Of a stretch of DNA of 64,000 nucleotides, positions 91 to 52,278 are shown one piece after another (position 1 is the first letter of the stretch; each line of letters begins with the position of its first letter). A program made the position numbers and the translations under genes. The DNA is from Candidatus Nomurabacteria bacterium (GTDB lineage Bacteria; Patescibacteriota; Minisyncoccia; Phycocordibacterales; SBAW01): contig CALREW010000001.1 of the NCBI GenBank assembly GCA_943356415.1, positions 16,528 through 80,527 of the forward strand, written 5' to 3'. Under the pieces are notes generated by a model. It was not told the DNA's origin, did no database searches, and saw nothing but the letters and a program-made list of their open reading frames with translations.

Positions 91-642
91 GTGGCAACAG
101 AGCTCTCTGATTTCCTAGATCCAGGACGTGCGGTTAAGGCCGCCAAGATACATGACCATATGAAGGTTGCCGACTTTGGCGTTGGCGCCGGCTTTTTTAC
201 GACCGCGCTCGCACGCGCTGTCGGCCCTCAAGGTCGCGTTTTTGCGATAGACATTAACCGCGACCTCCTCACGCGGCTCGCCCCTTTTGCCGAGCTTGAG
301 GACCTTATGAATATTGATTATGTGCAGGGTGACTTAGACGAGCCTCACGGTAGCTCTCTGCCAGAGGGGTGTGTGGATGTGGTTATGATGGCAAATATCC
401 TCTTTCAGGTAGAGAAAAAGGACATGATTATTGAGGAGGCGTACCGCGTGTTACGCAAAGGTGGACGTCTTGTACTTATAGACTGGAAAGATTCCTTTAA
501 TGGTATGGGGCCGCATAAGTCGGCAGTTGTAAGTAGGGAAGAGGCACTAGCCCTTACGACAAAAGGCGGAGGCTTCTCACACATGGAAGACATCCCGGCG
601 GGTACCTTCCACTATGGTTTAATTTTAAAAAAGAAGGGATGA
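91..642 (+). CDS. class I SAM-dependent methyltransferase (small-molecule/protein type, not a DNA MTase)
   Basis: Glycine-rich SAM motif DFGVGAGFFT, then VFAIDIN and a C-terminal VDVVMM...GGRLVLIDW block, typical of the Methyltransf_11/25 fold; the stop overlaps the next start (ATGA). Confidence 0.7.
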   Translation: MATELSDFLDPGRAVKAAKIHDHMKVADFGVGAGFFTTALARAVGPQGRVFAIDINRDLLTRLAPFAELEDLMNIDYVQGDLDEPHGSSLPEGCVDVVMMANILFQVEKKDMIIEEAYRVLRKGGRLVLIDWKDSFNGMGPHKSAVVSREEALALTTKGGGFSHMEDIPAGTFHYGLILKKKG

Positions 643-923
643 ATCCCGTTAGAAATACCAAAAGTTGGTATGTCTATGTTTTGCAGAGTAATCACACAGG
701 TCGGTTTTATACTGGAATGACACATGATTTACGGAAACGTTTAAGTCAGCATCGTCAGGGTAATACCCAGTCAACACGTCATTCCGGTCCTTGGAACTTG
801 GTATACTACGAGATGTCACTTGCCGAAGACGATGCTCGTGCGAGAGAAAAGTATCTAAAGTCTGGCATGGGTAAACGCTATGTTAAAAATCGACTTAAAC
901 GTTTCCTATTTCTAACGGGATGA
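639..923 (+). CDS. GIY-YIG domain protein, YhbQ/UPF0213-like
   Basis: WYVYVLQS...GRFYTGMTHDLRKRLSQH...KRYVKNRL matches the 90-100 aa GIY-YIG YhbQ family; ATGA overlaps at both ends. Confidence 0.7.
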   Translation: MNPVRNTKSWYVYVLQSNHTGRFYTGMTHDLRKRLSQHRQGNTQSTRHSGPWNLVYYEMSLAEDDARAREKYLKSGMGKRYVKNRLKRFLFLTG

Positions 924-2242
924 AAGACTGGAATTGGTTTCAACTTGGCGTTGTCGCGTTCTTCCTCTTCCTGCTTATGGCAGGCATTGCCGTGTTTGCT
1001 ACTTACGGCGGTAAGAGTTCGCAAGAAGTAGGCCCGGTAAGTATCTGGGGAACCTTTGACCGCAGCGCGATGGAAACGGTAATTGTCGAACTCGCTGGTA
1101 CTGATGACGCATTTCAAAACGTCTCCTACGTACAGAAGTCGCCAGATACGTACCGCCAGGAACTCACTGAAGCGATAGCGCGCGGCGCGGCGCCTGATAT
1201 CGCAATGCTCGACGATAGTGATGTGGTGAGCTTTGTCGCGAAAATTGACCAGATTCCATACAGCACGATGAGTCAGCGTGCGTTTAATGATGCGTTTATT
1301 GATGAAGCGGGTATCTTTGCTGGCACGCAAGGCATCATTGGGCTGCCGCTGTTTATTGACCCGTTGGTGATGTATTGGAACCGCGACCTATTCGCAGGTG
1401 CCGGCCTTGCCACCTATCCAAAGACCTGGACGGAGTTGCAGTCCATAGCACCCCGCATGACTTCTCTTGATGGCACGTCGAATGTTAAGCGCAGCGCTGT
1501 TGCTATCGGCACGTACAGTAACGTGCGTCACAGCAAAGAGATTCTCTCTGCGCTGCTTATGCAGGCAGGAGATCAAATCGTACTGCGTGGAGATGACGGC
1601 ACGCTGTCCTCTGTCTTTGGTGCCAACAACACGCAGAGTGTTGAGAACCCGGCAGAAGCGGTACTGCGTTTCTATACGAACTTCGCTAACCCTTCCCAAA
1701 CAGCGTATTCATGGAATCGTGCGCTGCCGGACTCCTTTACTGCCTTCTCCTCCGGTGACGTGGGTGTCTACTTTGGTTTTGCGAGTGAATATCGACCCAT
1801 AACGACACGTAACCCAAATCTTGCGGTTGGCGTAGCAACGCTTCCACAAACTGCTGCTTCGCGCAGTCCGCTTACTTACGGCAAAATGACCGCGCTGGTT
1901 ATTCCTCGAGGAGCGCGCAATTCGGCGGGAGGAATGGCTGTCGCACAGAAGCTCACAAATACGGATGCGGTTACTATCATCACAGCAAAGACAGGACTAC
2001 CGCCGGTGCGCCGCGATGTACTTTCTGCGAATTCGGCAGCTGCCGACTCGGTGGGAAGTGTGTTTGCGCAATCGGCACTTATCTCGCGATCGTGGTATGA
2101 CCCATCTCCACAGCAGACCTCAGACATATTCCGCAACATGGTAGAATCCGTCATAAGCGGCAGAGAGCAGCTCTCAAGCGCGATACGCTCGGCACAACTT
2201 TCACTCAACGATATTTTCGACAAGCTTCACCTCCCACAATGA
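920..2242 (+). CDS. extracellular solute-binding protein family 1 (MalE-like) with an N-terminal TM anchor
   Basis: N-terminal hydrophobic helix; VSIWGTFD, APDIAMLDDSDVVSF and IIGLPLFIDPLVMYWNRDLF...PKTWTELQSIA align to MalE-type substrate-binding-protein motifs; no permease or ATPase partner in the window. Confidence 0.7.
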   Translation: MKDWNWFQLGVVAFFLFLLMAGIAVFATYGGKSSQEVGPVSIWGTFDRSAMETVIVELAGTDDAFQNVSYVQKSPDTYRQELTEAIARGAAPDIAMLDDSDVVSFVAKIDQIPYSTMSQRAFNDAFIDEAGIFAGTQGIIGLPLFIDPLVMYWNRDLFAGAGLATYPKTWTELQSIAPRMTSLDGTSNVKRSAVAIGTYSNVRHSKEILSALLMQAGDQIVLRGDDGTLSSVFGANNTQSVENPAEAVLRFYTNFANPSQTAYSWNRALPDSFTAFSSGDVGVYFGFASEYRPITTRNPNLAVGVATLPQTAASRSPLTYGKMTALVIPRGARNSAGGMAVAQKLTNTDAVTIITAKTGLPPVRRDVLSANSAAADSVGSVFAQSALISRSWYDPSPQQTSDIFRNMVESVISGREQLSSAIRSAQLSLNDIFDKLHLPQ

Positions 2243-2643
2243 CGCTACTTAGGAACAAGTCTTTTGTTGCAGCGATACTAGCCTTGGGTATTGGGCTTAC
2301 TGTTATGTTTGTCGCCACAAGCGCATTTGCCCAAGTAGGCGTAAGCGTGCCTGCCGGTGGCCCAAATATCATTCAAAACCCGATAAGCAGCAACATCACG
2401 AACGTATCGCAGTTCGTTGAGGCCGTTTTGAAAGGAATACTCGCTATAGGAGTACCGATTGCGGTCTTCTTTATTGTTTTATCTGGGTTTCGTTTTATTA
2501 CTGCGCAGGGCAACCAAGAAAAACTCACGGCTGCGCGCAGTAACTTTATGTACACCATTATCGGAGTGGCCATATTTATCGGAGCGTGGGCATTGGCGCA
2601 ACTTATCGCTGCAACGCTCAAACAGATAGGGGTCAACGCATAG
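2239..2643 (+). CDS. TrbC/VirB2-like pilin-family small membrane protein, paralog 1
   Basis: Signal peptide ending AFA-Q, then two hydrophobic helices separated by the short polar loop AQGNQEKLTAARSN; 134 aa; coupled (ATGA) to the upstream substrate-binding-protein gene. Confidence 0.6.
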   Translation: MTLLRNKSFVAAILALGIGLTVMFVATSAFAQVGVSVPAGGPNIIQNPISSNITNVSQFVEAVLKGILAIGVPIAVFFIVLSGFRFITAQGNQEKLTAARSNFMYTIIGVAIFIGAWALAQLIAATLKQIGVNA

Positions 2644-2646
2644 CGT

Positions 2647-3087
2647 ATGAGCACCAAGGATACGCACGGGCATCAATCGACAGGTTACGGGAAGAAACTT
2701 ATACCGGTGTTTATCGGGCTCTTCGGTATTGGTTTTTTTGTACCAAGCCTTGTGTACGCGGCACCAACGACCTTTGCTCAGTTTGTGAAAGTCATTATCG
2801 ATATCATCAACCCGCTTGCCGGTCTCCTCATCACGTTTGCGGTTCTGATGTTTTTCTTTACCGTCATACGCTATATCAGCAGTGCGGGGGCTGAGTCACG
2901 CACGAAATATCGAGAGAACCTGACGTGGAGCATGATCGGTATATTTGTCATTGTCTCAGTCTGGGGGCTTGCGCGATTGGTCAGCATGACTCTTCTTGGC
3001 GACACTTCGACGGCTGGCACAACAAGAAATGACGGCATCAACCCGCAAGTGTTTCAGCAGCCAGGATGCGGGCCAACGTGCATTTAA
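2647..3087 (+). CDS. TrbC/VirB2-like pilin-family small membrane protein, paralog 2
   Basis: Same architecture, with the shared RYI-S-AG...K...MIGIFV..SVWG motif; C-terminal tail GCGPTCI. Confidence 0.6.
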   Translation: MSTKDTHGHQSTGYGKKLIPVFIGLFGIGFFVPSLVYAAPTTFAQFVKVIIDIINPLAGLLITFAVLMFFFTVIRYISSAGAESRTKYRENLTWSMIGIFVIVSVWGLARLVSMTLLGDTSTAGTTRNDGINPQVFQQPGCGPTCI

Positions 3088-3166
3088 TTAAAAGGTATCC
3101 ACATGCCTGTATTGCCTGAGGCGCAGGGCAGGGTAGGATTAACTCATAGCACTCGTAATTAGAAAT

Positions 3167-3511
3167 ATGAAGAAATTTACTGCCGCTCTCACGGTTCTTA
3201 TGGCGATGCCGCTCGTTGCGAGCGCGCAGAACGCCCAGGGTATTATCAATATTGTTCGTGGCCTTGTAGACCAGCTCATCCCGCTCGCACTTGCGGTAGC
3301 ACTCCTCGTGTTTTTCTGGGGTCTTATCCGCTACATTTGGTCTGCAGGTGACGCTGAAGGTAAGGCAAACGGTCAGAAGATCATGACCGCAGGTATCATC
3401 GGCCTCTTCCTCATGGTTTCTATCTGGGGCATTGTCGGCATCATCGCCAACACCTTCGGTCTCACGACCGGTACTCGCCAGACTCCTCCGTCTGTCTCTC
3501 ACACCATCTAA
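3167..3511 (+). CDS. TrbC/VirB2-like pilin-family small membrane protein, paralog 3
   Basis: Signal peptide MKKFTAALTVLMAMPLVASAQ, then two TM helices around SAGDAEGKANGQK. Confidence 0.6.
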   Translation: MKKFTAALTVLMAMPLVASAQNAQGIINIVRGLVDQLIPLALAVALLVFFWGLIRYIWSAGDAEGKANGQKIMTAGIIGLFLMVSIWGIVGIIANTFGLTTGTRQTPPSVSHTI

Positions 3512-3549
3512 CTTCGTTAACTTTGCGTTCTCTTCAAAACTAGCCCACC

Positions 3550-3816
3550 ATGGGATCAGTCTGTAGCGTAATGGCGCGGGTGAACTCCGCACTCATAGAT
3601 CCTGCACTCGCACTTGTCTTTGCGGCCGGCTTCCTCATGTTCATCTACGGCGTGGTTGAGTTTATGTTCTTCGCGCGCGGCGAAAAGGGAGAATATGCAG
3701 GGAAGGGACGCGAACATATGCTCTGGGGCATCATCGGTATGGCTATCATGATGTCTGCGTGGGGAGTATTGAAAGTCGTTGCGGGAACATTCTCGCTTGC
3801 CATTCCTTCCTGCTAA
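3550..3816 (+). CDS. TrbC/VirB2-like small membrane protein, paralog 4 (no obvious signal peptide)
   Basis: Two TM helices around ARGEKGEYAGKGREH; shares the ...MLWGIIGMAIMMSAWG motif with paralogs 1-3. Confidence 0.5.
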   Translation: MGSVCSVMARVNSALIDPALALVFAAGFLMFIYGVVEFMFFARGEKGEYAGKGREHMLWGIIGMAIMMSAWGVLKVVAGTFSLAIPSC

Positions 3817-3844
3817 CCTTCCCAAGGTATTGCTAGAATAGAAA

Positions 3845-3876
3845 GAGGCCCGGCGCTTGCGCGCGGGGCCTTTTTC
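3845..3876. terminator. rho-independent terminator (GC hairpin plus T-run) ending the pilin operon
   Basis: aggcccggcgcttgcgcgcggggcc followed by ttttt. Confidence 0.7.
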
Positions 3877-3907
3877 GACTCGTTTCTGTTCAAGGAAGCC
3901 TGGAGGC

Positions 3908-4612
3908 TTACTTGAAGGGGGAAGCCTTGAACGCCACGCCGCCGGGTACGTCGCCGTAGGCGAACTCCAGGACGTTTAGGTCGACCAGGTAGATCTCCTG
4001 GTTCGGGCCGACTTCCCACCACTGGATGGTCTTGGTCTTGTCGTCCCAGGCAGTGCACCGCACTTTCTTACCTTGGGCGCTGGTGCAGTATTCCACCTTC
4101 GCCTTCACCTTGCCGGTGACGACGATGCTCTGGAGGACGCAGCCGTGGTCGTTGACGACCCGCTCTCTAACTTGAGTGAAGTCGAACACTACCGCTTCGT
4201 TGCAGACGCGGCTGAGCACCCGCACCTTCGTTGCCGCAGGCGCCGGTGTCGGAGCCTGCGGGGTCGTCGGTGTCGCCGTGCCACCAGCGCGGCAGCGAAG
4301 GCGTTCCGCCTCATCTGCCTGCTTGCAGATGGTCGGCTCCGCCGGCTTGTTGGTCGGCGGAACCGTGGCTCCCTGTTGAGGGGGAGTCGGCGGTCCGTCG
4401 TCCAGCCAGTTCCAGGGTTTCAGCCAGAGGCTGCCGCCCCCGAGGAGGCACAGAAGGACGACCACGAGGCCGACTCTCCGTGCACCCTTGGTGCGCTGCG
4501 CTTGCCCGGCTTGGGCTTCGCGCACCGCGGCGTCGTTGACCGCTTGATCTCCGTCGGGAGGGGGGTCAGGGACGTGTGGCGGGTCTTGATGACCCGCGTT
4601 GTTGTTCGCCAT
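3908..4612 (-). CDS. Pro/Ala-rich membrane-anchored hypothetical protein (high-GC island)
   Basis: Long ORF in a roughly 65% GC segment; N-terminal Pro-rich low complexity, one TM (VGLVVVLLCLLGGG), C-terminal beta-rich domain with 4 Cys; co-directional with and 16 bp downstream of the SPFH-like gene. Confidence 0.5.
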   Translation of the reverse strand: MANNNAGHQDPPHVPDPPPDGDQAVNDAAVREAQAGQAQRTKGARRVGLVVVLLCLLGGGSLWLKPWNWLDDGPPTPPQQGATVPPTNKPAEPTICKQADEAERLRCRAGGTATPTTPQAPTPAPAATKVRVLSRVCNEAVVFDFTQVRERVVNDHGCVLQSIVVTGKVKAKVEYCTSAQGKKVRCTAWDDKTKTIQWWEVGPNQEIYLVDLNVLEFAYGDVPGGVAFKASPFK

Positions 4613-4628
4613 GTGGTAGCTCCCCTTG

Positions 4629-5972
4629 TCAGTTCGAATTTGCTGGCGGTGTTACAGGGGCGGGCGAACCCGCGTATAACGGAGCCAGCGGGTTGTGATC
4701 GACGCCACGGTAGAAGATTTCCGTGGCGCGTCTCCGGTTGATGCGTACGAGCTCGAGCGCCTTGACGTAGTCAAGGGTCGAACCCTTGGCCGCCGCCTGC
4801 GTGATGTACTTCTCCGCGAGCTGATGCTCGGTCTCGAAGTCGATCGTCTCGCCTGAACGCTGCTGCTTCTCTTGCGCGGCAAGGTCAGCAGCTTGGGCGA
4901 GTGCCCCCGTAAGGGCGAAATCGAAAGCGTTGGCGCGTCGCAGCATGATGCCGAGGCCGCGCACATCGCTCATGCCGTTTTGCACGACATCTTCGAGGAA
5001 GTACTCGATCTCGGCTCTCGACGGTACTTCGTCGGCGCCGAGGTAGCGTTGTGGGTCGCTCTCGTCGTACGTCAGGTACCGGTGAGGCGAGTCCTTGCGC
5101 ATGTCACGCAAGGGCCGGCCGTTTCGGGTCCCGTCATCCGTACGCACGCGCACGCTTGGGTGAACGCCGGTCAGCATCGTGATGATGCCGGCCGAAAGCT
5201 CGGGCATCATGGTCTGAAGCTCCTCCCACGTGAATTGCGTCGCGTGCTTGCGCAGCGCTTCGCTGATCATGTTGGTGAGCATCGCCCGTGCGCCCGCCTG
5301 TCTGCCTACCGTAACGAGCTGGTAGGCGCGGTTGCGCCGCGTGTCTGGTTCGAACGTGCAGCCGAAGGTAAGTTCCACCTCGCCGCCGCTCTCCCAGGGC
5401 TTCAGGACGTACTTCGCTACGCCGCCCACCTTCACCTGCTGCTGTTGATCGTCGAGCAGCGGGATGGTCTTCGGCATGAGCGTGACTGGGTCGATCATCG
5501 AATCCTTGGCGCAGCGAACCTTCACCTTGAAGTCGAACTCGGTCTGCGTGGTGCCAATGTAAATCAGCCCATCAAATCGAGCTAGCCTCAGGACGAAGGC
5601 GATGCGCGGGACGATGACGCGATTCAGCGGATGGCCGAACAGCGTGCTTATCGCCACCATCGGCGGGTCGGCCTTTACCTCATCCCACCCGAAGTAGATG
5701 ATGAGGCCCAGGACGCTGCCGAAGATGGCGATGATGATACCGGCGTTGAAGCCGAAGATCATCAGAACGATCCCGAGGAGAGTCCATGCGAGCATGAGCT
5801 GTTCCGTCGGAGTCGTCCGTGACCCGAGGAGGAAAGGCCATGCGAGCCAGGCCTCCTGTGCGGTCTGTAACCCGAGGGTCAGGGCGTTCCAAACGCCGAT
5901 GACCCTGTTGCCAATCCATACGAGGACGGCGTCGGTGTATTTCATGAGTGTCCTCCAGTTTTCAAAGACCAC
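4629..5972 (-). CDS. SPFH/Band-7-like membrane protein (putative; high-GC island)
   Basis: Two N-terminal TM helices, then a roughly 250 aa domain with SPFH-like alternating hydrophobic pattern, then a coiled/charged C-terminus; assignment is tentative. Confidence 0.4.
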   Translation of the reverse strand: MVFENWRTLMKYTDAVLVWIGNRVIGVWNALTLGLQTAQEAWLAWPFLLGSRTTPTEQLMLAWTLLGIVLMIFGFNAGIIIAIFGSVLGLIIYFGWDEVKADPPMVAISTLFGHPLNRVIVPRIAFVLRLARFDGLIYIGTTQTEFDFKVKVRCAKDSMIDPVTLMPKTIPLLDDQQQQVKVGGVAKYVLKPWESGGEVELTFGCTFEPDTRRNRAYQLVTVGRQAGARAMLTNMISEALRKHATQFTWEELQTMMPELSAGIITMLTGVHPSVRVRTDDGTRNGRPLRDMRKDSPHRYLTYDESDPQRYLGADEVPSRAEIEYFLEDVVQNGMSDVRGLGIMLRRANAFDFALTGALAQAADLAAQEKQQRSGETIDFETEHQLAEKYITQAAAKGSTLDYVKALELVRINRRRATEIFYRGVDHNPLAPLYAGSPAPVTPPANSN

Positions 5973-6098: not shown

Positions 6099-6105
6099 TT
6101 TTCGG

Positions 6106-6711
6106 TCAATAAAATAACCCGAGAGTGTTTGATTCCAAAGTAAGGACAGTACTCGCGCTAAAGACACTATTTGCGACACACAGGTACTCTGGATTTCTGA
6201 ACACATTTATAAGCACGGTGCCACCATTTTTCACTGCACTTTTTAGAGACTGCATGAAAATTTCGTCATCTAACAGCGCTGATGGTTTGCCGTCATGAAA
6301 TAAATCGACGAGAACGAGGTCGTACTGTTTGCTCACCTGTTTTAGAAATTCTCTCGCGTCTGCTTCGTAGATGTTTGGAGCGGGAAATGGATTCCATAGC
6401 TTTGCCGTACGTGCGACAGCTATCATCTGTGAGTCGTAGTCAACCGCATCGATGATGCAGTTTGGAAAATACTCGTATATCTCTTTAATCGTTCCACCTG
6501 CGCCAAATCCCAACTGCAAAACGTTCTGTACAGGTGCTTCTTGTTTTGCGTGTAGCAGGATTTTAAATGCTTCTTCCCAAATCTCAGTAAGTTCGGGGCC
6601 GGTGTTTTCGTTGCCTCCGGAAAATATCCTCCATCTACCAAGCACGCGCTTAATCAGCATCGTGCCGTTCTTTTTTGAGTGAACGGTCCGTCTGCTGAAA
6701 AGCCAGTTCAT
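6106..6711 (-). CDS. spermidine-synthase-like / class I SAM-dependent methyltransferase fold protein
   Basis: VLQLGFGAGGT...IIDAVDYD...DLVLVDLF matches the aminopropyl/methyl-transferase Rossmann motif. Confidence 0.5.
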   Translation of the reverse strand: MNWLFSRRTVHSKKNGTMLIKRVLGRWRIFSGGNENTGPELTEIWEEAFKILLHAKQEAPVQNVLQLGFGAGGTIKEIYEYFPNCIIDAVDYDSQMIAVARTAKLWNPFPAPNIYEADAREFLKQVSKQYDLVLVDLFHDGKPSALLDDEIFMQSLKSAVKNGGTVLINVFRNPEYLCVANSVFSASTVLTLESNTLGLFY

Positions 6712-6719
6712 GGATGGTT

Positions 6720-7253
6720 CTATTCAGTTTTTGTGTCGACCTGGCCGTAGAAAAGGCGAACAAGTTTGGGAAGGTCACTTTTACAAGGTTCTCCTGCATC
6801 AAGTTTTTTTAGAAGATCGCTTGGCGTGATCCACATCCACTCGCAAAAATCGTGAGGATTGTAATTGGGGACTTCGTTTTGTGTCAGTTCATATGTCTCG
6901 CTAAATGCAGACATATTGTGCTCATGCGGAGTGGCTTTGCCGAGATGTTTAAGTTGAGTTACGTCAACAACGATGCCCGCTTCTTCATGCGTTTCTCTGA
7001 TGAGTGCCGCTTCATAACTTTCTCCACTTTCTACGTGGCCTGCAACACTCATGTCGAGACAAAGCGGGAAGAGACGCTTGTGCGCCGTGCGACGTGGTAT
7101 CCAAATTTCGCCTTTGTTGTTGCGAATAAAAAGATTGACGACGCGAAAATTGCGCAAGCCTAGTGCGTATACTTCTGAGCGAGGTTTACTGTCTATTACC
7201 TCATCGCGCTCGTTGACGAGGTCGAGGATCTCTTCTTGTTCCGTCTGTTCCAT
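6720..7253 (-). CDS. NUDIX hydrolase
   Basis: Nudix box GHVESGESYEAALIRETHEEAGI (GX5EX7REUXEEXGU). Confidence 0.8.
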   Translation of the reverse strand: MEQTEQEEILDLVNERDEVIDSKPRSEVYALGLRNFRVVNLFIRNNKGEIWIPRRTAHKRLFPLCLDMSVAGHVESGESYEAALIRETHEEAGIVVDVTQLKHLGKATPHEHNMSAFSETYELTQNEVPNYNPHDFCEWMWITPSDLLKKLDAGEPCKSDLPKLVRLFYGQVDTKTE

Positions 7254-7281
7254 GTGTGGGAGTGAAAGTTGCTAAGGCAGA

Positions 7282-7854
7282 TTATTTGCCAGACTTTTCA
7301 ATTATTTTGCGTATTAGTTTCTCATCCGCAACTGCTTTGGGTGCCTTGCGACCAAATCTTTTAAGTTGAATAGCAGCTACTTGTTGCTGAGCCTCAAGAG
7401 TTGCCGTGCGTAGCGAGACTCCTTCCAGGACAGCGTTAGTTTGTTCTGGAAAATATAAGGATGAATCAATCTCGGCACCTGGTTCTAAGTGCCGGATAGC
7501 TTGCTCAAAAAGCTTTGAATTTCCCAAGTCTAATTTGGTGCCTGTTGTTTTGTGTACATATTTCTCAACCCCCTCTTCGGTTTTAAGATGTGCGAAATCA
7601 AGATTCGAGATGATCTCTTGAGCACGGACGTGGTCCTCCTCTTCGACAATAATGTCTATATCGTCGTGATCGCGACTCAATTTACCGTACAAAGCATCGA
7701 GACCATAACCACCGAGCACTGAATAGTGCACGGTGGCAGTTTCCAGGGCGTGAGAGAGGTTCTTCAAAAGATCAAAACGTTCGCGTTGTTGAAGTGACGG
7801 TCTGTACTCAGACTCGATCTTCCGGGTCCGGGAAGGTTTTTCTTTGGGCGGCAT
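7282..7854 (-). CDS. nucleotidyltransferase of the ANT(2'')/Lnu-like (PF10706-type) family
   Basis: HYSVLGGYGLDALYGKLSRDHDDIDIIV matches the W..GGWG.D...G...R.H.DIDI motif of lincosamide/aminoglycoside nucleotidyltransferases. Confidence 0.5.
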   Translation of the reverse strand: MPPKEKPSRTRKIESEYRPSLQQRERFDLLKNLSHALETATVHYSVLGGYGLDALYGKLSRDHDDIDIIVEEEDHVRAQEIISNLDFAHLKTEEGVEKYVHKTTGTKLDLGNSKLFEQAIRHLEPGAEIDSSLYFPEQTNAVLEGVSLRTATLEAQQQVAAIQLKRFGRKAPKAVADEKLIRKIIEKSGK

Positions 7855-7902
7855 AAGAAAACTTTAGCACACGACCATATTGAGACTTGATGCTAAGGAA
7901 AT

Positions 7903-8153
7903 TACCTTTTTGTGCTCTAATTCTAACATTTGCTCGAACCTACTTCACACGCGCGGAGCGCGTGGTGGCTTGAAACTGCCCCGTACGCTCCGATTAAGTG
8001 GTGATGCGAACCAATGCGCCTCAACCGCGCTCGCAGACTCGCGCGGGCAAACCCAAAAATTTCCTTGCATTTTCTTTGCACGGCTCCTCCCCCCACCCCT
8101 CCGCCTGCAAGGCGAAAAATGAGGAAAGGAAATTTTTGGTTTGCTTCGCCGCT
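7903..8153. repeat. IR-A (about 250 bp), inverted copy of 9914-10165
   Basis: The reverse complement of 9914-10165 matches 7903-8153 essentially base for base (both strands produce the shared ORF-track peptide MVMRTNAPQPRSQTRAGKPKNFLAFSLHGSSPHPSACKAKNEERKFLVCFAA). Confidence 0.9.
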
Positions 8154-8425
8154 TCGGAACTCCGAAAAGAGTACTTTTAGTTTAGCACTTATGATTGCTC
8201 TTTTCTCCATTCCTCGCGGCGACCCGAGGTGCAATACAATGCGGTCTGCGCTAATGCGCAGTCAGATTTAATATGTGCTTGCCCACCCTCCCACCGCGCA
8301 CATAATCCCCACCGTTTTAGGAAAAATTATAAAACGGTTGGGATTGCTCCATAAAATAAGAGTTTGTTTGGATTGACTTCTGAAAAGTGGTACACTATAA
8401 GCTATAAACATTAAACAATACTTTT

Positions 8426-8905
8426 ATGGGAATGGAAGGATTTAAACCTGCATCGCAGGAAAAAGAGCCGACAATTGGGACACCGGAAAACGTTGAGGGA
8501 CCAAATCAACTGGATAATATTTTGAATGTAATTCGACAAAAAATTGAGCTTGCAAAAGTGCAATTAGAGAAAGCAAATTCGCAAGAATGGATAATAGGAG
8601 AATCAGGTTTCGCAGTTGAACCAAAAGAAGCGGCTCAAGCTAAAGCAAAATTGGACTATTTAGAAAAAGCCCACGAATTATTTTTTAAACCTGTCTTAGA
8701 GTCTCCAAAATCTCAACTTTCGTTAGAAGTAGTGCTTGAGGGTATTGAAAATTATACGAAACATCTTAACGATGAGTATGCTAGACAGTTTGGTAAACTT
8801 GATCCTAACGATGTTGAAGAGACAAAACAAAATAGGGCCAAAAAAATGTGGGGGGAGATAAAACTTAGGGACAAAATTGTGTCTGAGTTTTCGTCCATTA
8901 CTTAA
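8426..8905 (+). CDS. hypothetical protein (AT-rich cargo)
   Basis: 159 aa ORF with coiled-coil-like Lys/Glu-rich composition; no recognisable motif. Confidence 0.45.
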   Translation: MGMEGFKPASQEKEPTIGTPENVEGPNQLDNILNVIRQKIELAKVQLEKANSQEWIIGESGFAVEPKEAAQAKAKLDYLEKAHELFFKPVLESPKSQLSLEVVLEGIENYTKHLNDEYARQFGKLDPNDVEETKQNRAKKMWGEIKLRDKIVSEFSSIT

Positions 8906-8934
8906 TAAAGAACTTAATAAAGACTTTTTGATTC

Positions 8935-9654
8935 CTAGATTCTTAATTTTGTTTTCCAGTTTGTAATCGCAGTGCGTAAGGATTCTTCATAGACAGATTT
9001 AAATGCTGTTTCGAGCGTTGTGTTTTCATCGAGCTTTCTATATGCCTCTATTATTTTATTTTCTCCATAAACTTTTCTTAAGTACTCAATAAAACTGAAA
9101 AGCACCAGATACCCAAGCTGGTCGGCAAACGGCTCTTTGTTTGTATCTCCTCCCATTGTTTTTATATCCCCTATTGTTTGAATAGCGAGAGGGTCGGGAA
9201 TGTCTTGAATATTTTCCTTTTCTAATTTTTCAATAAGTCTGTCTGTTGCGCCATCAAACCCCGCAGTTCCTTCTTCTAGGAAAAAAGAATTTCTATAGGC
9301 AGAGAAATTTCCAACAAGATGAGCAACGACAATATGGGCTGTTTCGTGTTTGATGATTTTTTCTGCATCATTTGGTAGATCCCGAAATACATCGACATTG
9401 CAATATATTTTGTCGTCTGGTTGATCTCGAAGAAGAAAACAATATTTCCATGATTGCGGACCAGAGGTTGCCCCTTCTCTAAAAGCATCATCGCTCATTA
9501 TTGATACCCCGATTCTTATTGGCGAGGAAACACCCCACTCTGCTTCCAAAAGTACACCAACCTTGTTAAAAGATAGCTTTACTTGCTTCTCTTGCTCAAC
9601 TAAAACGCTCCCAGAGATTTCAAATATAAAATTTATATATTGTGGCTTTTTCAT
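8935..9654 (-). CDS. ImmA/IrrE-family (Peptidase M78/DUF955-like) zinc metallopeptidase
   Basis: HExxH motif HETAHIVVAH; lies next to and upstream of an XRE helix-turn-helix gene, as in ImmR/ImmA modules. Confidence 0.55.
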   Translation of the reverse strand: MKKPQYINFIFEISGSVLVEQEKQVKLSFNKVGVLLEAEWGVSSPIRIGVSIMSDDAFREGATSGPQSWKYCFLLRDQPDDKIYCNVDVFRDLPNDAEKIIKHETAHIVVAHLVGNFSAYRNSFFLEEGTAGFDGATDRLIEKLEKENIQDIPDPLAIQTIGDIKTMGGDTNKEPFADQLGYLVLFSFIEYLRKVYGENKIIEAYRKLDENTTLETAFKSVYEESLRTAITNWKTKLRI

Positions 9655-9663
9655 CTTTAAAAT

Positions 9664-9873
9664 TTATTTTAACAACTTATCGCTCGAAACGCCGAGCGCT
9701 TGAGCCAAGCGTTCCAGCTGTTGAATGGTAATATTTTTCTTGCCGTTCTCTATCGCACTCATATAGCCCCTATCCATATCAAGCGCACGGCAAATGTCGC
9801 CTTGCGACATTTCTTTTCGAGTCCGTATTTTCTTGATATTTTGACCAAGTTTTTCACGAATCAACATATCCAC
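9664..9873 (-). CDS. XRE-family helix-turn-helix transcriptional regulator
   Basis: MSQGDICRALDMDRGYMSAIENGKKNITIQQLERLAQALGV is a canonical HTH_XRE (Cro/C1) sequence. Confidence 0.8.
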   Translation of the reverse strand: MDMLIREKLGQNIKKIRTRKEMSQGDICRALDMDRGYMSAIENGKKNITIQQLERLAQALGVSSDKLLK

Positions 9874-9913
9874 AGTTTACGAGATATTGCATTTCTAGCC
9901 AATCTTGAACTAT

Positions 9914-10292
9914 AATTCAACTTAGCGGCGAAGCAAACCAAAAATTTCCTTTCCTCATTTTTCGCCTTGCAGGCGGAGGGGTGGGGGGAGGAGCCGTGCA
10001 AAGAAAATGCAAGGAAATTTTTGGGTTTGCCCGCGCGAGTCTGCGAGCGCGGTTGAGGCGCATTGGTTCGCATCACCACTTAATCGGAGCGTACGGGGCA
10101 GTTTCAAGCCACCACGCGCTCCGCGCGTGTGAAGTAGGTTCGAGCAAATGTTAGAATTAGAGCACTAGAGAGAACAAGTCGCGGATTTAGAATTTGGAGC
10201 GATTTTGCGGAAGCCAAAATCGCGCTATCAATTTCTTTTCCGCCTACGGCGGAAGCCGTGAAATCCCATAATTCCCCCCAGCGTATGGAAAC
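9914..10292. repeat. IR-A' (9914-10165) contiguous with IR-B (10162-10292)
   Basis: The first part is the inverted copy of 7903-8153; the second part is the inverted copy of 11698-11827; the two overlap by 4 nt (gcac). Confidence 0.9.
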
Positions 10293-11844
10293 AACTCAAA
10301 CCAAAACTAAATGCGTTCTCTATGCAAGAAAAAGCACAGAGGAAGATGATAAACAAGTTATGTCCATTGAGGCACAGTTTTTTGAATTGGAAGAATACGC
10401 GCATAGAGAACGCATTGAAATCGTGAAAGTATTTACGGAAGCGAAAAGCGCAAAAAAGCCCGGGCGAGACGAGTTTGCGAAAATGATTGAATATATTGAA
10501 AGAAGCAGTGAGCCAATCGGTATCATTTGTTGGCACCCCGACCGTCTCGCCCGCAATAGCGTTGATGGCGGTAAAATAATTTATCTTGTAGACACTGGCG
10601 CTATTGCTTCTTTGCGCTTTCCGCAGTTTTGGTTTGAGCCAACTCCGCAAGGGAAATTCATGTTGCAAGTGGCGTTCGGACAAAGCAAGTATTTTTCTGA
10701 CAATCTTGTGGAAAATGTGAAGCGTGGAATCCGCCAGAAATTGCGAAAGGGTGAATGGCTGACACTTGCGCCCCTTGGCTATGTGAACAATTACAAAACG
10801 AAAAATATTGAACCCGACAAGGTAGAATCTCGCGTTATCAAGTTAGCATTTCAAGAATACGCCAAGGGAACGCACACGCTTGTTTCTCTTTCGCAATTTC
10901 TGGCGGATCACGGGATTGTGCAGAAAAAAGGAACGCCACTTGCCAAAGTTTCCGTCGTGAAAATGTTGTCCAACAGAGCATATATAGGATTTATTAAACA
11001 TCGCGGAGAATGGCACGACGGAAACTTTGAATCCATTGTTTCTCCGACACTGTTTGAAGCAGTGCAAAAAGTGTTCGCGGAACGGAAGAAACCCCGAAAG
11101 CAAAAATCGTTTCTTCCGTTCGCATTTACCGGATTTGCAAAGTGCGGAGAGTGTGGCTGTGCAATTACGGCACAATATTCCACCAACCGATATGGAGTAA
11201 AATATTGCTACTATCGTTGCACCAAGAAAAATGGAAAGTGCGCACAGCCGTATTTGCAGGAAAAATCACTCTCCGCACAATTGCAAACACTGCTTCAATC
11301 AGTGTCGCTTCCTCTCTCGGAAATTGAAGAAATGGAAAAGCAGATTGATATGTGGGAGAAAGAATCAATTTCCGAGAGAGGAAGTGTTGCCCAAAATCTA
11401 AAAACGAAACTTTCAGACACGAAGGAGAAACTGGACAAACTTATTACGCTCTACCTCGACGGGGATATTGAACGAGAAATATATTTGGCGCGTAAAGATT
11501 TACTCCTTCGTGAAAAAGCGAAAGTTTCGGAAAGTTTAGATGATTTTGGGCAACACAAGAAACAATGGCTCCAACCCTTGCGGAGTTTCATTTTGTCCTT
11601 GAAAGAAGCCACTGTTTTGCAGGAAACGGAAAACCACCTCGCGTGGAAGCAGTTTTTCCAAAAAATCGGGTCTAACCCCACTTTCAAGGACAAAACGGTT
11701 TCCATACGCTGGGGGGAATTATGGGATTTCACGGCTTCCGCCGTAGGCGGAAAAGAAATTGATAGCGCGATTTTGGCTTCCGCAAAATCGCTCCAAATTC
11801 TAAATCCGCGACTTGTTCTCTCTAGTGCCGGGGAGAGGACTTGA
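10285..11844 (+). CDS. large serine recombinase (resolvase/invertase catalytic domain, recombinase domain and zinc ribbon)
   Basis: CVLYARKSTEEDDKQ...ICWHPDRLARN catalytic domain with the Ser in ARKST; C-terminal CGECGC...CYYRCTKKNGKC zinc ribbon; ATG at 10285 (METTQ) sits exactly at the end of IR-B; the ORF track's alternative start is 10258; the C-terminal roughly 45 codons run through IR-B' and 20 nt into tRNA-Leu, so the true stop may be earlier. Confidence 0.8.
   Translation: METTQTKTKCVLYARKSTEEDDKQVMSIEAQFFELEEYAHRERIEIVKVFTEAKSAKKPGRDEFAKMIEYIERSSEPIGIICWHPDRLARNSVDGGKIIYLVDTGAIASLRFPQFWFEPTPQGKFMLQVAFGQSKYFSDNLVENVKRGIRQKLRKGEWLTLAPLGYVNNYKTKNIEPDKVESRVIKLAFQEYAKGTHTLVSLSQFLADHGIVQKKGTPLAKVSVVKMLSNRAYIGFIKHRGEWHDGNFESIVSPTLFEAVQKVFAERKKPRKQKSFLPFAFTGFAKCGECGCAITAQYSTNRYGVKYCYYRCTKKNGKCAQPYLQEKSLSAQLQTLLQSVSLPLSEIEEMEKQIDMWEKESISERGSVAQNLKTKLSDTKEKLDKLITLYLDGDIEREIYLARKDLLLREKAKVSESLDDFGQHKKQWLQPLRSFILSLKEATVLQETENHLAWKQFFQKIGSNPTFKDKTVSIRWGELWDFTASAVGGKEIDSAILASAKSLQILNPRLVLSSAGERT
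11698..11827. repeat. IR-B' (about 130 bp), inverted copy of 10162-10292, ending inside the tRNA-Leu(TAG) 3' end
   Basis: The reverse complement of 10162-10292 matches 11698-11827. Confidence 0.9.
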
Positions 11845-11906
11845 ACCTCCACATCTTGCGATACCTGCTCCTAAGGCAGGCGTGTATACCAATTTCACCA
11901 CCCCGG
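11825..11906 (-). tRNA. tRNA-Leu(TAG), type II
   Basis: Cloverleaf readable: acceptor GCCGGGG/CCCCGGC, anticodon stem CCTGC/GCAGG with loop CTTAGGA, long variable arm, T-loop TTCAAGT; no encoded CCA. Confidence 0.85.
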
Positions 11907-12011
11907 CGTAAGGGAACTATAAACCAGAAAGGGCAGGCTCAAAAGGAGGATTCGGTCCTTACAGGATGAGTACAGGGCGCACAGGTGGTCAGGGGTTTGA
12001 GTTTGGAAGGA

Positions 12012-21978: not shown

Positions 21979-22923
21979 TTGCATCGTATGACCCAGAGGT
22001 TTGAATCTTTTCTCGTACCGATGGTCGTGCTGCTTATTGCTGCATTTGTTTTTCTCTCACCAGAGCTCGCTTTTGCACAGCAAGGTATCGTGGCGCAATG
22101 TACCGGCATCAATTGCCAGCTTTGTAATCTTTTTGGCCTGTTTAATAACGTGATCCAATACTCGATTTTCGTTGCAAGCGTTATCGCGGCGATTATGTTT
22201 GCGTGGGCGGGTGCATTGTTTGTATTTGCGATGGGCGATCCAGGTAAGATTGCGAGTGCTAAACATATATTTGCAACCGTATTAACCGGGTACATTATCG
22301 CGCTTGTTGCGGTGATTGGACTCGACACTCTCATAAATGTAATCGCGAACAATGGCTTTAAGTGGAGAAGCGTTCAGTGCGTCAGTGGGCGCATAACGAG
22401 CGGTGGACTGACTTTTAACGAAACACCTATCATTATTGTTTCTAAAACTAACGGTTGGGTGAGTCCAGAAATGAATGAACTGTATAACTCAGCGACAGGT
22501 CAGCGTTTTACTGACGTAGGTCAGGCTGCCATTGCACTTATAGGTGAGCTCGTGTCGAAGGACGGCAGATCTCCCCCCGAGACCCAAAACGGAAATTTAG
22601 CTTGCGCATGGGCAGTGAATCAGATTCTTGCCAAGGCAGGGTATGACACTATTGATAACCTGAGTGTTCCTGATATGTACCGAATACTCAAGACTGAAGG
22701 CAGAGGGGAGCTTGTCCCAATAGAACAAGCGCAACCTGGAGATATCGCGATACGAGGCGATATAGGTCACGTGGGTATATGTACAAAACCCGGATGCGCC
22801 ACGGTAGCTTCGAATTCCTCGTCGGAGGGAGTCCTTAGAAATCAGGGCGAAACAGATTTTCAAAGGAATCAACATGGTGTAAAAACTCCCACTCTGGTGT
22901 ATAGGCCAACAAAAACAAGATGA
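21979..22923 (+). CDS. fusion protein: TrbC/VirB2-like pilin N-terminal domain plus C-terminal CHAP-like (Cys/His amidase-peptidase) domain
   Basis: N-terminus has a signal peptide and two TM helices homologous to the 2239-3816 paralogs; C-terminus has GNLACAWAVNQ (Cys) and GDIGHVGIC (His) spaced as in CHAP domains. Confidence 0.5.
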   Translation: MHRMTQRFESFLVPMVVLLIAAFVFLSPELAFAQQGIVAQCTGINCQLCNLFGLFNNVIQYSIFVASVIAAIMFAWAGALFVFAMGDPGKIASAKHIFATVLTGYIIALVAVIGLDTLINVIANNGFKWRSVQCVSGRITSGGLTFNETPIIIVSKTNGWVSPEMNELYNSATGQRFTDVGQAAIALIGELVSKDGRSPPETQNGNLACAWAVNQILAKAGYDTIDNLSVPDMYRILKTEGRGELVPIEQAQPGDIAIRGDIGHVGICTKPGCATVASNSSSEGVLRNQGETDFQRNQHGVKTPTLVYRPTKTR

Positions 22924-23543
22924 AATTCGTACCCATTATTTTTGCATGTTTGGCACTTGCTGTGGGAGTTTTCTACGGCCTCTTCAAACTTCACTCCTCA
23001 CAGCCTATCGAAGAAGCTCCTTCCCAAACAGGAACTGACGGTGACGGATTCTACACGTCCCGTCCCGGCGTCAATGATCAAGGCTCCAACCCGATTTCTG
23101 TGGGAACGCCACAAGAAGAAAATTTTGTTGTCATTACACGCAGTAGCAGCAGCGCGTCATCTGGAGTGGTGCTTGTCCAGCCTAAACAGCCAACCATTGA
23201 ACAGCCAGCACTCGCTCAGAAAGATCCTGCGGCAGTAAAGCAGAAAGGGGACGAGGCCTTTAATGCGGAAGTATCTGGCTCAAGTGCAATTACGGCATCA
23301 AGTCCAAGTGCAACGATAGGCAAAGGAGTTGTTGTAGTGTCGAATTACGCACTGTATTTGTGGAGTGATGAAAATAGCGGGGGCGAAGCGTTGTTTAGCA
23401 TATCGTCCTCGGGCGCGTGGAAGCTCCTATCGATGGGGGGAGGTGTCTGGAGTGCTGAGGGCTTGGTGAAATTTGGAGTGCCATCAGCCATCGCGTCGCA
23501 GTTGGTTTCAAATAAGCCGTGGGGCAAAGCAAACAAGATCTAG
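22920..23543 (+). CDS. membrane-anchored hypothetical protein (Ser/Ala-rich)
   Basis: N-terminal TM helix, low-complexity Ser-rich linker, C-terminal beta-rich domain; ATGA-coupled to the upstream gene. Confidence 0.45.
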   Translation: MKFVPIIFACLALAVGVFYGLFKLHSSQPIEEAPSQTGTDGDGFYTSRPGVNDQGSNPISVGTPQEENFVVITRSSSSASSGVVLVQPKQPTIEQPALAQKDPAAVKQKGDEAFNAEVSGSSAITASSPSATIGKGVVVVSNYALYLWSDENSGGEALFSISSSGAWKLLSMGGGVWSAEGLVKFGVPSAIASQLVSNKPWGKANKI

Positions 23544-26460: not shown

Positions 26461-27483
26461 ATGTCAGGGTTCTATAGCGACGCCATTTTTTGGGTGGAGG
26501 TGGATAAAATCCAGCCAAACCCCTATCAACCTCGCAAAGAGTTCGATGAAGCGAAGCTTAAAGACCTCGCAGGTTCAATACGCCAGTACGGGGTGTTGCA
26601 ACCGCTCGTAGTAACGAGAAAAGAGTTTCAGAAAGACGATGGTGGCATAGGCGTCCACTACGAATTAATTGCCGGTGAGCGCCGTTTGCGTGCGTCGCGC
26701 CTCGCAGGTTTGCCTCAAGTGCCTGTCATCATTCGCGATGACGACCAGAGCGACATGATGAAGCTCGAGCTGGCTATCATCGAAAATTTACAGCGAGAGG
26801 ACCTCAATGCCATTGATCGTGCTCGTGCGTTTGAGCGTCTTGCAAACGAATTCAATTTCAAACACGGTGAGATAGCAAAGAAAGTAGGGAAGAGCCGCGA
26901 ATATGTTTCAAATACCATACGCCTCCTTGCAATGCCTGAAGTGATGCAGCAAGCGCTCTCCGAAGGACGTATCACCGAAGGTCATACACGACCCCTTCTT
27001 ATGCTCATCGATAGGCCAGAAGAGCAGGACGTATTGTTCCGCGAAATAATGTTGAAGAAACTCACGGTACGTGAGTCTGAAGCCATTGCTCGTCGTATCG
27101 CATTTGATAAGGTGCGCAAGCGCGAAAAGATGTATGACCCTGACATTGTCGAAATGGAACAGCGTCTTACTGAAGCGCTCGGCACTCGAGTTGCGATAGA
27201 GACAAAAGAAGTTGGGGGCAAACTCGTCATCGACTTTTTCTCTGACGATGACTTGCGAGACATTCTCATGATGTTTAATACCAAAGCTTCTGGCCCACGT
27301 CGCGGCTCGCTTCTTGCTGCGGTCGCTGATGCGGTTGGTTTTGGCTCTGGAGCCGCTGCAGCGGTTGAAACTTCAGCAGGAGAAGTGGCATCAATAACTG
27401 AAGAATCAAAAACGCCGATTGACGACACTCCTGTCGCAGAAATTCGCGAAGACGACTTCGACCCAAAGAACTTCGCGATTTAA
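26461..27483 (+). CDS. parB: chromosome partitioning protein ParB/Spo0J
   Basis: ParB N-terminal domain with the GERRLRA motif, an HTH, and a C-terminal dimerisation region; no parA upstream. Confidence 0.85.
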   Translation: MSGFYSDAIFWVEVDKIQPNPYQPRKEFDEAKLKDLAGSIRQYGVLQPLVVTRKEFQKDDGGIGVHYELIAGERRLRASRLAGLPQVPVIIRDDDQSDMMKLELAIIENLQREDLNAIDRARAFERLANEFNFKHGEIAKKVGKSREYVSNTIRLLAMPEVMQQALSEGRITEGHTRPLLMLIDRPEEQDVLFREIMLKKLTVRESEAIARRIAFDKVRKREKMYDPDIVEMEQRLTEALGTRVAIETKEVGGKLVIDFFSDDDLRDILMMFNTKASGPRRGSLLAAVADAVGFGSGAAAAVETSAGEVASITEESKTPIDDTPVAEIREDDFDPKNFAI

Positions 27484-40645: not shown

Positions 40646-41002
40646 ATGGAATCAGAATCATTAAAACTTGCAAAGACTTTTCTCGGCAAAAAAGTTCATC
40701 TTAAATTCGATCAACCTGTCGGTTCTTCGTATAAACCACACAATATAGATAGTTACCCAATTAACTATGGGTATGTACCTGGAGTACCCGCTCCTGACGG
40801 AGATGACCTGGATGCCTATCTTCTCAACGTGTTTGAACCTCTTAAAGACGCAGACGGCGTATGCATCGCCATTATTCATAGAATAAATGACGATGACGAC
40901 AAGTTGATTGTTGTGCCTGAAGGGGCGCAATTGACCGATGAAGAAATTTTAAAGCAAGTCTCTTTCCAAGAGCATTTATACGAAGGTGTCGTTGTAAGAT
41001 AA
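40646..41002 (+). CDS. inorganic-pyrophosphatase-like protein, short form (118 aa)
   Basis: YPINYGYVPGVPAPDGDDLD and NDDDDKLIVVP align with the family I PPase metal-binding Asp clusters, but the N-terminal roughly 50 residues and the C-terminal Tyr-Lys are absent. Confidence 0.45.
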   Translation: MESESLKLAKTFLGKKVHLKFDQPVGSSYKPHNIDSYPINYGYVPGVPAPDGDDLDAYLLNVFEPLKDADGVCIAIIHRINDDDDKLIVVPEGAQLTDEEILKQVSFQEHLYEGVVVR

Positions 41003-41018
41003 ATCTCACCGAGGAGCA

Positions 41019-43399: not shown

Positions 43400-43458
43400 G
43401 TTTTTTGACCGGTACGCCCGCGCGACGGAAGTTGCGCGGGATGTGCTCGGTCCCATAC

Positions 43459-52244: not shown

Positions 52245-52278
52245 AAAAGTCTCAGGTCAAGCGTGATACCATACCTGC

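Follow-up and report, generated by a model that had tools for sequence, protein, structure and literature searches.

Organization and expression signals of the locus

The 64 kb window examined here, meaning the whole stretch of Candidatus Nomurabacteria DNA that was analysed, carries at 91-3816 on its forward strand seven open reading frames (ORFs) that encode, in this order, an S-adenosylmethionine (SAM)-dependent methyltransferase (MT), a GIY-YIG nuclease-family protein, a solute-binding protein (SBP) and four small paralogous pilin-like proteins, referred to below as pilA, pilB, pilC and pilD (Table 1). The main result is that the MT, the SBP and the four pilins constitute a core chromosomal module of the Paceibacteria and not a mobile element. 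With moderate confidence, we read this module as one that serves a single surface structure linked to a type IV secretion system (T4SS).

An earlier note, made on this DNA from its letters, had described the seven genes as a translationally coupled operon. The ORF list of the window agrees with the positions and lengths first described, and the ATGA stop/start overlaps at 639, 920 and 2239 can be read directly in the sequence; the remaining intergenic gaps measure 3 nt (pilA-pilB), 79 nt (pilB-pilC) and 38 nt (pilC-pilD). The same locus is found, identical, on independent metagenome contigs, and on one identical contig the start of pilD is called 21 nt later, which gives a protein of 81 amino acids (aa).

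Table 1. Genes and sequence features of the module and of related loci in the window.
Feature	Position	Strand	Description
SAM-dependent methyltransferase (MT)	91-642	+	183 aa, GTG start, class I, cytoplasmic
8-bp direct repeat GGGATGAA, left copy	635-642	+	read from sequence; right copy at 916-923
GIY-YIG nuclease-family gene	639-923	+	94 aa, stand-alone
Solute-binding protein (SBP)	920-2242	+	440 aa, sugar-binding type
pilA (pilin paralogue 1)	2239-2643	+	134 aa
pilB (pilin paralogue 2)	2647-3087	+	146 aa
Candidate internal promoter 5' of pilC	3112-3139	+	putative; TTGCCT, 16 nt, TAGGAT
pilC (pilin paralogue 3)	3167-3511	+	114 aa
pilD (pilin paralogue 4)	3550-3816	+	88 aa; alternative start 3571, giving 81 aa
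Likely terminator hairpin	3841-3876	.	RNA fold; G+C-rich, with A and U runs on its sides
Divergent SPFH/Band-7-like membrane protein	4629-5972	-	447 aa, 61% GC; convergent neighbour
Pilin-hairpin/hydrolase fusion (fifth family member)	21979-22923	+	array profile, homologues, Foldseek

Two signals frame the expression of the array. Downstream of pilD, the RNA fold of 3814-3900 has an energy of -38.2 kcal/mol (z = -3.5), a stability reached by none of 200 shuffled sequences, and the hairpin at its centre is likely an intrinsic terminator that acts in both directions, separating the array from the convergent genes. In the gap ahead of pilC, two blocks of the form TTGCC(T)-16 nt-TA(GG/CC)AT are kept among the five closest genomes, and the candidate promoter that they form agrees with the consensus at 8 of 12 positions. 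An internal promoter at this place would boost pilC together with pilD. A riboswitch or attenuator in the same 79-nt gap was also considered and rejected because the fold there is no more stable than that of shuffled sequences (z = -0.08), so that the conserved promoter-like motif is the better fit. A simple scan for promoter and terminator consensus sequences returned nothing above shuffle expectation, its fixed rules having missed both the hairpin and the promoter-like motif.

Family and anatomy of the four small proteins

The gathering cut-off of the Pfam family PF18895 (T4SS_pilin) is 26.6 bits, and each of the four exceeds it: pilA reaches 39.4, pilB 40.9, pilC 35.1 and pilD 31.1 bits, and the same label is also precomputed on an identical contig. 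Against TrbC/VirB2 (PF04956, cut-off 27.9 bits), pilA scores 25.2 bits (E 2e-5), just below the threshold, and the Pfam scan gave no match to this model for pilB, pilC or pilD. Among the NCBIfam models, sub-threshold similarity was seen to a pilin-like family of mycoplasma integrative conjugative elements (ICEs) and, for pilC only, to TrwL (E 0.046). Judged from these profiles, the four proteins belong to the T4SS_pilin/VirB2-like family and do not resemble it by chance, as the earlier note had proposed.

The motif block that the same note had recognised in the four proteins is real and reads, in their common alignment, [R/E]-[Y/F]-[I/M]-x-x-A-x-G ... [I/M]-I-G ... [S/G]-x-W-[G/A]. Every paralogue has two hydrophobic helices with a short charged loop between them. 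Sec-type leaders end in AFA|Q in pilA, VYA|A in pilB and ASA|Q in pilC, and pilD has no leader, likewise the last array gene in relatives (median 91 aa). Beyond this common plan, some 25 exposed N-terminal residues, among them a conserved NPI motif, precede the two-helix hairpin of pilA; in pilB the N-terminal leader is long, and the last 30 or so residues form a variable tail that ends in CGPTCI. An AlphaFold model of pilC, built on a 26-sequence alignment with a mean predicted local distance difference test (pLDDT) value of 77, places helices at residues 4-18 (the signal), 20-58 and 63-96.

Conservation of gene order in Paceibacteria

The gene order was followed beyond this genome by a scan with the SBP alignment over one genome per species (GTDB), which found a relative in 279 genomes. 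The best 80 of these 279 loci, with 40-51% SBP identity, were kept; they span Adler-, Kaiser-, Nomura- and Campbellbacteria and other Paceibacteria. They were searched with a hidden Markov model (HMM) of the four window pilins, and the other genes were located by phmmer. ORFs in the related loci were taken as the longest possible, so that single starts and gaps are approximate and the medians robust.

The MT lies directly upstream of the SBP in 73 of the 74 loci with enough upstream DNA. Directly downstream of the SBP, at least four same-strand pilin ORFs follow in 62 of the 63 loci that extend for at least 2 kb, and the remaining locus has three; the array has four members in 46 loci and five in 19. 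The gene order of the window is thus conserved well beyond this genome, a point on which the earlier note had made its proposal depend. Spacing is equally regular in the 45 four-gene arrays, with median gaps of 9 nt between MT and SBP, 2 nt between SBP and pilin 1 (at most 10 nt in 82% of cases and an exact ATGA overlap in 22%), 1 nt between pilins 1 and 2, 77 nt between pilins 2 and 3, and 11 nt between pilins 3 and 4.

Around this unit, relatives share a neighbourhood with gyrA upstream and SPFH, RbfA, IF-2, ClpB, MiaA, ParB, RelA, TopA and DprA downstream. The gene content of the interval from gyrA to the MT varies among relatives, and the link among MT, SBP and pilins is therefore closer than that given by regional synteny in general.

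Evolution of the array positions

The four pilins share only 23-32% pairwise identity, and each position of the array is an ancient orthologue lineage under purifying selection. The best match of pilA is the fourth gene from the array end in 54 of 75 loci; for pilB it is the third from the end (37/75), for pilC the second from the end (60/75) and for pilD the last position (74/75). With the SBP as a yardstick (67-77% identity to the nearest relatives), pilC is the most conserved pilin at 76-87%, with 86-87% to its nearest orthologues, and pilD follows at 64-81%, both being more conserved than the SBP. Identities are 55-66% for pilA over its full length (80% over a truncated call of 71 aa in one relative, L082) and 52-61% for pilB, the fastest-evolving of the four.

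The ratio of non-synonymous to synonymous substitution rates (dN/dS) points the same way. Between the paralogues, the comparison that the earlier note had suggested, it is not meaningful, since synonymous sites are saturated at 23-32% identity, and orthologue comparisons were used instead; among orthologues dS is saturated for several genes as well, which leaves amino acid identities and some of the ratios as usable measures. Where dS is unsaturated, in the closest relatives, dN/dS is about 0.1 (0.09-0.22; pilC 0.11-0.15). For the same genome pairs, dS is 0.64-1.2 in pilC and pilD (pilC 0.64-0.69), as against more than 2.8 or saturation in the SBP and MT, which suggests strong codon selection or high expression. 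pilC is a candidate for the major subunit.

Conservation maps from 46 species show that the helices are kept and that the central loops and the N- and C-terminal extensions of pilB vary. The variation of the exposed ends that the earlier note had observed is therefore genuine. Its explanation by diversifying selection was not borne out, given the positional orthologue groups, the dN/dS of about 0.1 and the conservation of pilC and pilD above that of the SBP. The pilins are stable, subfunctionalised subunits and not a diversifying array.

The binding protein and the methyltransferase

The SBP matches SBP_bac_8 (E 6e-18, 66 bits against a cut-off of 27) and SBP_bac_1 (3.5e-17, 63.8 bits against 26). 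Profile matches to solved structures include 5ci5 (3e-14) and the trehalose/maltose-binding protein 1eu8 (3e-13), as well as oligosaccharide- and glycerol-3-phosphate-binding proteins. More than 1378 homologues were retrieved, and those with a named source come from Patescibacteria, Paceibacterota or Adlerbacteria, which places the window in an uncultivated bacterium of the class Paceibacteria, within the candidate phyla radiation. Across 79 sequences, 57 positions are at least 95% conserved, many of them aromatic, and these look like a conserved ligand pocket. The N-terminus has a hydrophobic anchor or signal segment at about residues 7-29, with no lipobox cysteine. Within this membrane segment F7, Q8, G22 and F26 are 95-100% conserved in the same 79 sequences, more than a passive anchor would usually show and a hint of a specific contact within the membrane.

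As the earlier note had observed, this SBP stands without a transporter partner: no permease or ATPase of an ATP-binding cassette (ABC) transporter was detected among the ORFs scanned in the 64 kb or among the flanking genes annotated in relatives, and the 80 related loci have no conserved permease-sized cluster.

The MT matches the Pfam families Methyltransf_31, Methyltransf_11 and Methyltransf_25 (E 2e-16 to 5e-15), and its nearest solved structure is the generic SAM methyltransferase 3dh0 (2.9e-16). Every NCBIfam equivalog falls far below its cut-off.

The GIY-YIG gene as an insertion

The second gene of the row is recognised by Pfam PF01541 (2.9e-15, 56.8 bits). No YhbQ-specific model in NCBIfam matched it, and the designation as YhbQ-type rests on size only. 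Between MT and SBP this gene occurs only in the window and on the identical contigs; it was found there in none of the 80 loci, nor in the closest relatives (L084 and L085, 77% SBP identity), in which MT and SBP overlap directly through a single ATGA junction. Furthermore, the gene has 41% GC, against 51-53% in the adjoining genes, and the insert of 281 bp is bounded by GGGATGAA at 635-642 and 916-923 and recreates an ATGA junction on both sides.

The gene is best read as a lineage-specific selfish insertion that left translational coupling unbroken and that lies outside the conserved module. As an insertion of exactly one ORF at an overlapping stop/start junction, it may be a stand-alone mobile gene with coupled junctions as its target; another GIY-YIG ORF, diverged in sequence, is present at 40998-41279. 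Accordingly, the tight coupling of the seven-gene operon stood up to scrutiny and the seven-gene functional unit did not, as the GIY-YIG gene is missing from this place in 80 genomes and in the closest relatives. The earlier note had also regarded both the MT and the GIY-YIG gene as unexpected companions, which holds for the insertion and fails for the MT, the most constant neighbour of the SBP.

Chromosomal context and the distribution of secretion genes

The window is ordinary chromosome. Its genes include those for IF-2, ClpB, MiaA, ParB, RelA/SpoT, TopA and DprA, together with SerRS, Dus, DnaX, LexA, UvrB and Tgt and eight tRNAs, and gyrA and a NUDIX gene lie upstream of the window start. 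Pfam scans detected no VirB4, VirB6, VirD4 or relaxase among the scanned ORFs of the 64 kb, so the homologues of VirB4, VirB6 and VirD4 that the earlier note had suggested seeking elsewhere are not nearby. Additionally, VirB4, PrgI and TraC-like queries from a related genome matched nothing in the window and nothing up to 10 kb away in the 80 loci.

This setting bears on the idea that the four proteins are pilins of a chromosomally integrated conjugative element (an ICE or plasmid T4SS) devoted to DNA transfer. In its favour are the weak resemblance of the proteins to TrbC/VirB2 and to the pilin-like family of mycoplasma ICEs, and a serine recombinase beside a tRNA-Leu gene at 10258-11907. However, at least 63 species have the module at the same place in the chromosome, its GC matches that of host genes, relaxase, VirD4 and VirB4 are missing from the 64 kb, and the recombinase sits in a separate low-GC insertion that relatives do not have. 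Relaxases are also absent from most Patescibacterial T4SS clusters in a published survey (PMC12102498). On the grounds of chromosomal synteny and of the absence of a relaxase and a coupling protein, this explanation was rejected and is regarded as highly improbable.

In one other genome of the Patescibacteria group (L088, 1-12675), a PrgI/TraC-like/VirB4 cluster lies beside yidC-rnpA-rpmH-dnaA-dnaN. It includes a distant pilin-domain protein (P0172, 283 aa) with 47% identity over the pilin domain only and a PF18895 match labelled weak. This compact T4SS cluster also holds two proteins of about 1100 aa and fits the published origin-proximal arrangement, so that it could serve as a reference locus.

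The SPFH-like gene that converges on the array at 4629-5972 encodes a homologue (1.7e-41) of a protein in a relative (L026) whose own Pfam match to Band_7 is 23.9 bits against a cut-off of 23.6. Of about 50 loci that extend far enough downstream, 34 have an SPFH-like gene in this place and on this strand. The gene diverges so fast that it is not recognisable by BLAST between close relatives with 72% SBP identity. It is associated with the module by position alone.

A pilin-hairpin fusion protein at 21979

The earlier note had also reported a fifth homologue fused to a CHAP domain at 21979, and the homologue is confirmed. The array HMM matches residues 34-121 of the protein (E 6.4e-10), which comprises in order a signal peptide, a Cys-rich segment, a pilin-like hairpin, a linker and a C-terminal, papain-like cysteine hydrolase of the NlpC/P60-CHAP type. 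Taken by itself, the C-terminal domain reaches only 15.3 bits against CHAP (PF05257; E 0.029), below the cut-off of 26. Homologues carry PF18895, and three of them also a precomputed PF05257 label. In 18 homologues there is no variation at C206, H261 and N276, and the motifs G-x-x-ACAWAVN (Cys), HVGIC (His) and SNSS are invariant. The hydrolase-domain model (pLDDT 80-94) has as its top Foldseek matches the NlpC/P60 peptidoglycan endopeptidases 4xcm, 3pbi and 3i86 (probability 0.99-1.00, E 2e-3 to 2e-2). The NlpC/P60-CHAP assignment is supported at the level of both family and fold, and the topology implied by the hairpin would place the hydrolase domain outside the cell.

In relatives the gene is likewise found after ClpB, where the fusion proteins form a conserved locus of their own, as seen at 21979-23543 in the window, at 10001-12437 in L086 and at 5111-7157 in L089. 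A small secreted protein is always encoded 3' of the pilin-hairpin fusion; some relatives' fusions have an extra N-terminal domain of about 150-200 aa, and one relative has two fusions in a row.

Comparison with known systems

VirB2-like pilin arrays in Patescibacteria have already been described, and the kind of array found here is known. PF18895 is the family of a six-gene array of Southlakia epibionticum (Saccharibacteria), SEML1_0014-0019, which transposon sequencing (Tn-seq) showed to be essential (Wang 2023, PMC10633639). In that organism the array adjoins VirB6-like, PrgI and VirB4 genes and so lies inside a T4SS cluster, whereas the window array stands apart from such genes. Arrays of this kind are common in Patescibacteria, for which a survey reported VirB2-like genes in 1948 VirB4-positive assemblies, with 441 arrays of 2-11 genes and a mutual pilin identity of about 25% (Quinonero-Coronel 2025, PMC12102498). 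According to the same survey, pilins lie near virB4 and other T4SS genes in many assemblies and not in all (1135 of 1948), virB4 is typically near dnaA in Paceibacteria, and arrays are most abundant in Microgenomatia and Saccharimonadia, not in Paceibacteria (PMC12102498). Variation within arrays has been proposed, in a published suggestion, to give versatility in host range. The function of the T4SS-like machine of Patescibacteria has been called "completely unknown" (PMC11665869), and uptake from the host is a speculation in reviews (PMC12857230).

The window array shares with these arrays the PF18895 family, tandem small genes, a signal peptide followed by a two-helix hairpin, paralogue identities of about 25-30%, a chromosomal location and the lack of a relaxase. 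It differs in belonging to one operon with an MT and an orphan SBP, and in that the paralogues come in a fixed order and a fixed number (four, in some loci five) throughout the Paceibacteria, under purifying selection. We did not find in the literature examined an obligate operon linkage of pilins to an orphan sugar-type SBP and an MT, a fixed four-paralogue set with positional orthology and purifying selection, the separation of the array from the virB4 cluster, or a separate pilC-pilD expression unit.

Likeness to the classical conjugative pilins VirB2 (Ti plasmid), TrbC (RP4) and TraA (F) lies in small size, a cleaved leader, two hydrophobic helices and a short charged loop. Cleavage at an Ala-rich site gives mature VirB2 a Gln as its first residue, and the same would hold for pilA and pilC. 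Differences are that the window organism is a monoderm, that its genes do not adjoin VirB4 or VirB6, that four obligatory paralogues, one of them without a leader, take the place of one major pilin, and that neither a TraF maturation peptidase nor a TraX acetylase is present in the operon.

For the SBP, the nearest precedent is PrgZ/TraC, pheromone-binding proteins of enterococcal plasmids that are encoded with Gram-positive T4SS and use a chromosomal permease. Both have a solute-binding fold, no permease of their own, linkage to T4SS-family genes and a monoderm host. PrgZ and TraC, however, are peptide-binding (family 5) plasmid lipoproteins linked to regulatory genes, and the window SBP is of the sugar type (family 1/8), chromosomal and coupled to pilins. 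The fusion protein at 21979 can likewise be set beside the VirB1-type hydrolases of Gram-positive T4SS (CHAP/lytic transglycosylase), with which it shares the catalytic domain, a conserved Cys and His and a membrane anchor; it differs in that its anchor is a pilin-family hairpin and its gene lies outside a T4SS cluster.

Proposed role of the module and its alternatives

Beyond family membership, topology, synteny and the selection regime, we infer the following course of events for a T4SS-linked surface structure. Pilins 1-3 would be exported by Sec and cleaved after AxA, and pilin 4 would insert into the membrane without a signal peptide. The four would act as non-redundant subunits of one structure, with pilC, expressed together with pilD from its own promoter, as the abundant major subunit. 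Assembly of the structure would fall to the VirB4/VirB3/VirB6 machine, whose genes Patescibacteria have at another place in the genome, near dnaA. At the cell surface, the co-translated SBP would act with the pilin structure and capture a conserved, carbohydrate-like ligand from the host or the environment, and the MT would serve the same pathway as the pilins and the SBP.

Several observations weigh against this reading. Genes for VirB3, VirB4 and VirB6 are missing from the 64 kb window and, in 80 genomes, from a distance of up to 10 kb around the module, which makes the link to a T4SS an indirect one; it draws on the shared family of the S. epibionticum array, on the published survey and on the distant pilin-domain protein in the L088 cluster. 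To our knowledge, no pilus has been seen in any Patescibacterium. Comparison of the pilC model with the PDB by Foldseek gave nothing at E < 0.6 and only generic helical hairpins, and no conjugative pilins came up when PDB sequences were searched with a profile of the pilin alignment; the structural similarity to conjugative pilins on which the earlier note had made its proposal depend did not emerge, in a test of low power, as a two-helix hairpin has little discriminating power in structural matching. The MT is generic and could be a housekeeping enzyme. Finally, the region from gyrA to IF-2 is syntenic class-wide, and adjacency alone is a weak sign of shared function.

The last two points lead to an explanation by synteny, in which the pilins serve a distant T4SS, the SBP feeds an unlinked ABC transporter, the MT is housekeeping and the operon is shared for historical reasons. 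The whole neighbourhood, from gyrA to DprA, keeps its order across the class, and the MT has no specific family assignment, as such an explanation would have it. It accounts less well for junctions that remain coupled (by overlap or within 10 nt) across genomes with only 40-50% SBP identity, for the variable genes just 5' of the MT beside a constant MT-SBP-pilin unit, for a GIY-YIG insertion that left both ATGA couplings intact, and for the lack of an ABC partner in any examined flank. We therefore consider it rather unlikely, though not negligibly so.

A second alternative dispenses with the T4SS altogether, in that the four hairpins would form a self-contained, hetero-oligomeric channel or signalling complex to which the SBP docks, as an importer or sensor. 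A fixed set of four distinct, conserved paralogues, an orphan SBP with a sequence-conserved membrane segment, the tight coupling to pilins 1 and 2, the absence of T4SS genes nearby, and best Foldseek matches of pilC to membrane hairpins of channel or stator proteins would all suit it. These matches are not significant, however; the module has no energising component (an ATPase or ion-coupled domain), and the family is otherwise embedded in T4SS clusters. We judge this alternative improbable.

A bolder reading can also be formulated, and we think it improbable. SBP and pilins would constitute one import device, in which a carbohydrate-like molecule of the host is handed to a conduit or filament made of the four fixed paralogues, and fusions of the 21979 type would be minor subunits that cut the host cell wall.

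Other features of the window

Two convergent genes on the minus strand at 3908-5972 have 61-65% GC against about 50% in the genome; one is the SPFH-like gene and the other encodes a Pro/Ala-rich protein of 234 aa. A reading of this stretch as a foreign island was rejected in part, because the SPFH-like gene holds its position in most relatives. Beyond it, from about 6100 to 11907, GC falls to 37-47%, and the genes encode a spermidine-synthase-like methyltransferase, a NUDIX protein, a nucleotidyltransferase resembling aminoglycoside-2''-adenylyltransferase, an MA-type peptidase and a large serine recombinase (10258-11907), which abuts tRNA-Leu. IF-2 lies 12.3 kb from the SBP start in the window, against about 7.5 kb in relatives. 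The stretch looks like an integrated element.

Further along, a second long ParB-like protein of 612 aa (ParB_N and HTH_ParB), distinct from the canonical ParB at 26461-27483, is encoded at 35822-37660 in a stretch of 60% GC with several long overlapping ORFs in other frames. The 956-aa protein at 43405-46275 combines an N-terminal CopC domain with a weak filamin/Ig-like repeat and is probably a large surface protein, and the region 50966-56067 encodes secreted proteins with CAP, Ig-like and PG_binding/fn3 domains.

Significance

Members of the very large and diverse Patescibacteria live on other cells and are unable to synthesise most building blocks. In the only species tested so far, both the T4SS-like machine and its pilin array proved essential. 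The array in Paceibacteria is a stable set of hetero-subunits, and pilin arrays therefore need not be devices of antigenic variation. Such a fixed four-subunit set can be modelled or purified, and the SBP is a candidate receptor with a determinable ligand.

The class-wide coupling of pilins to a conserved SBP and MT makes the speculation about uptake from the host concretely testable. If the SBP acts with the pilins, the uptake role proposed for the essential machine becomes open to experiment; and if the import device exists, it would give the enigmatic, essential "T4SS" of epibionts a role in nutrient uptake and a named ligand receptor.

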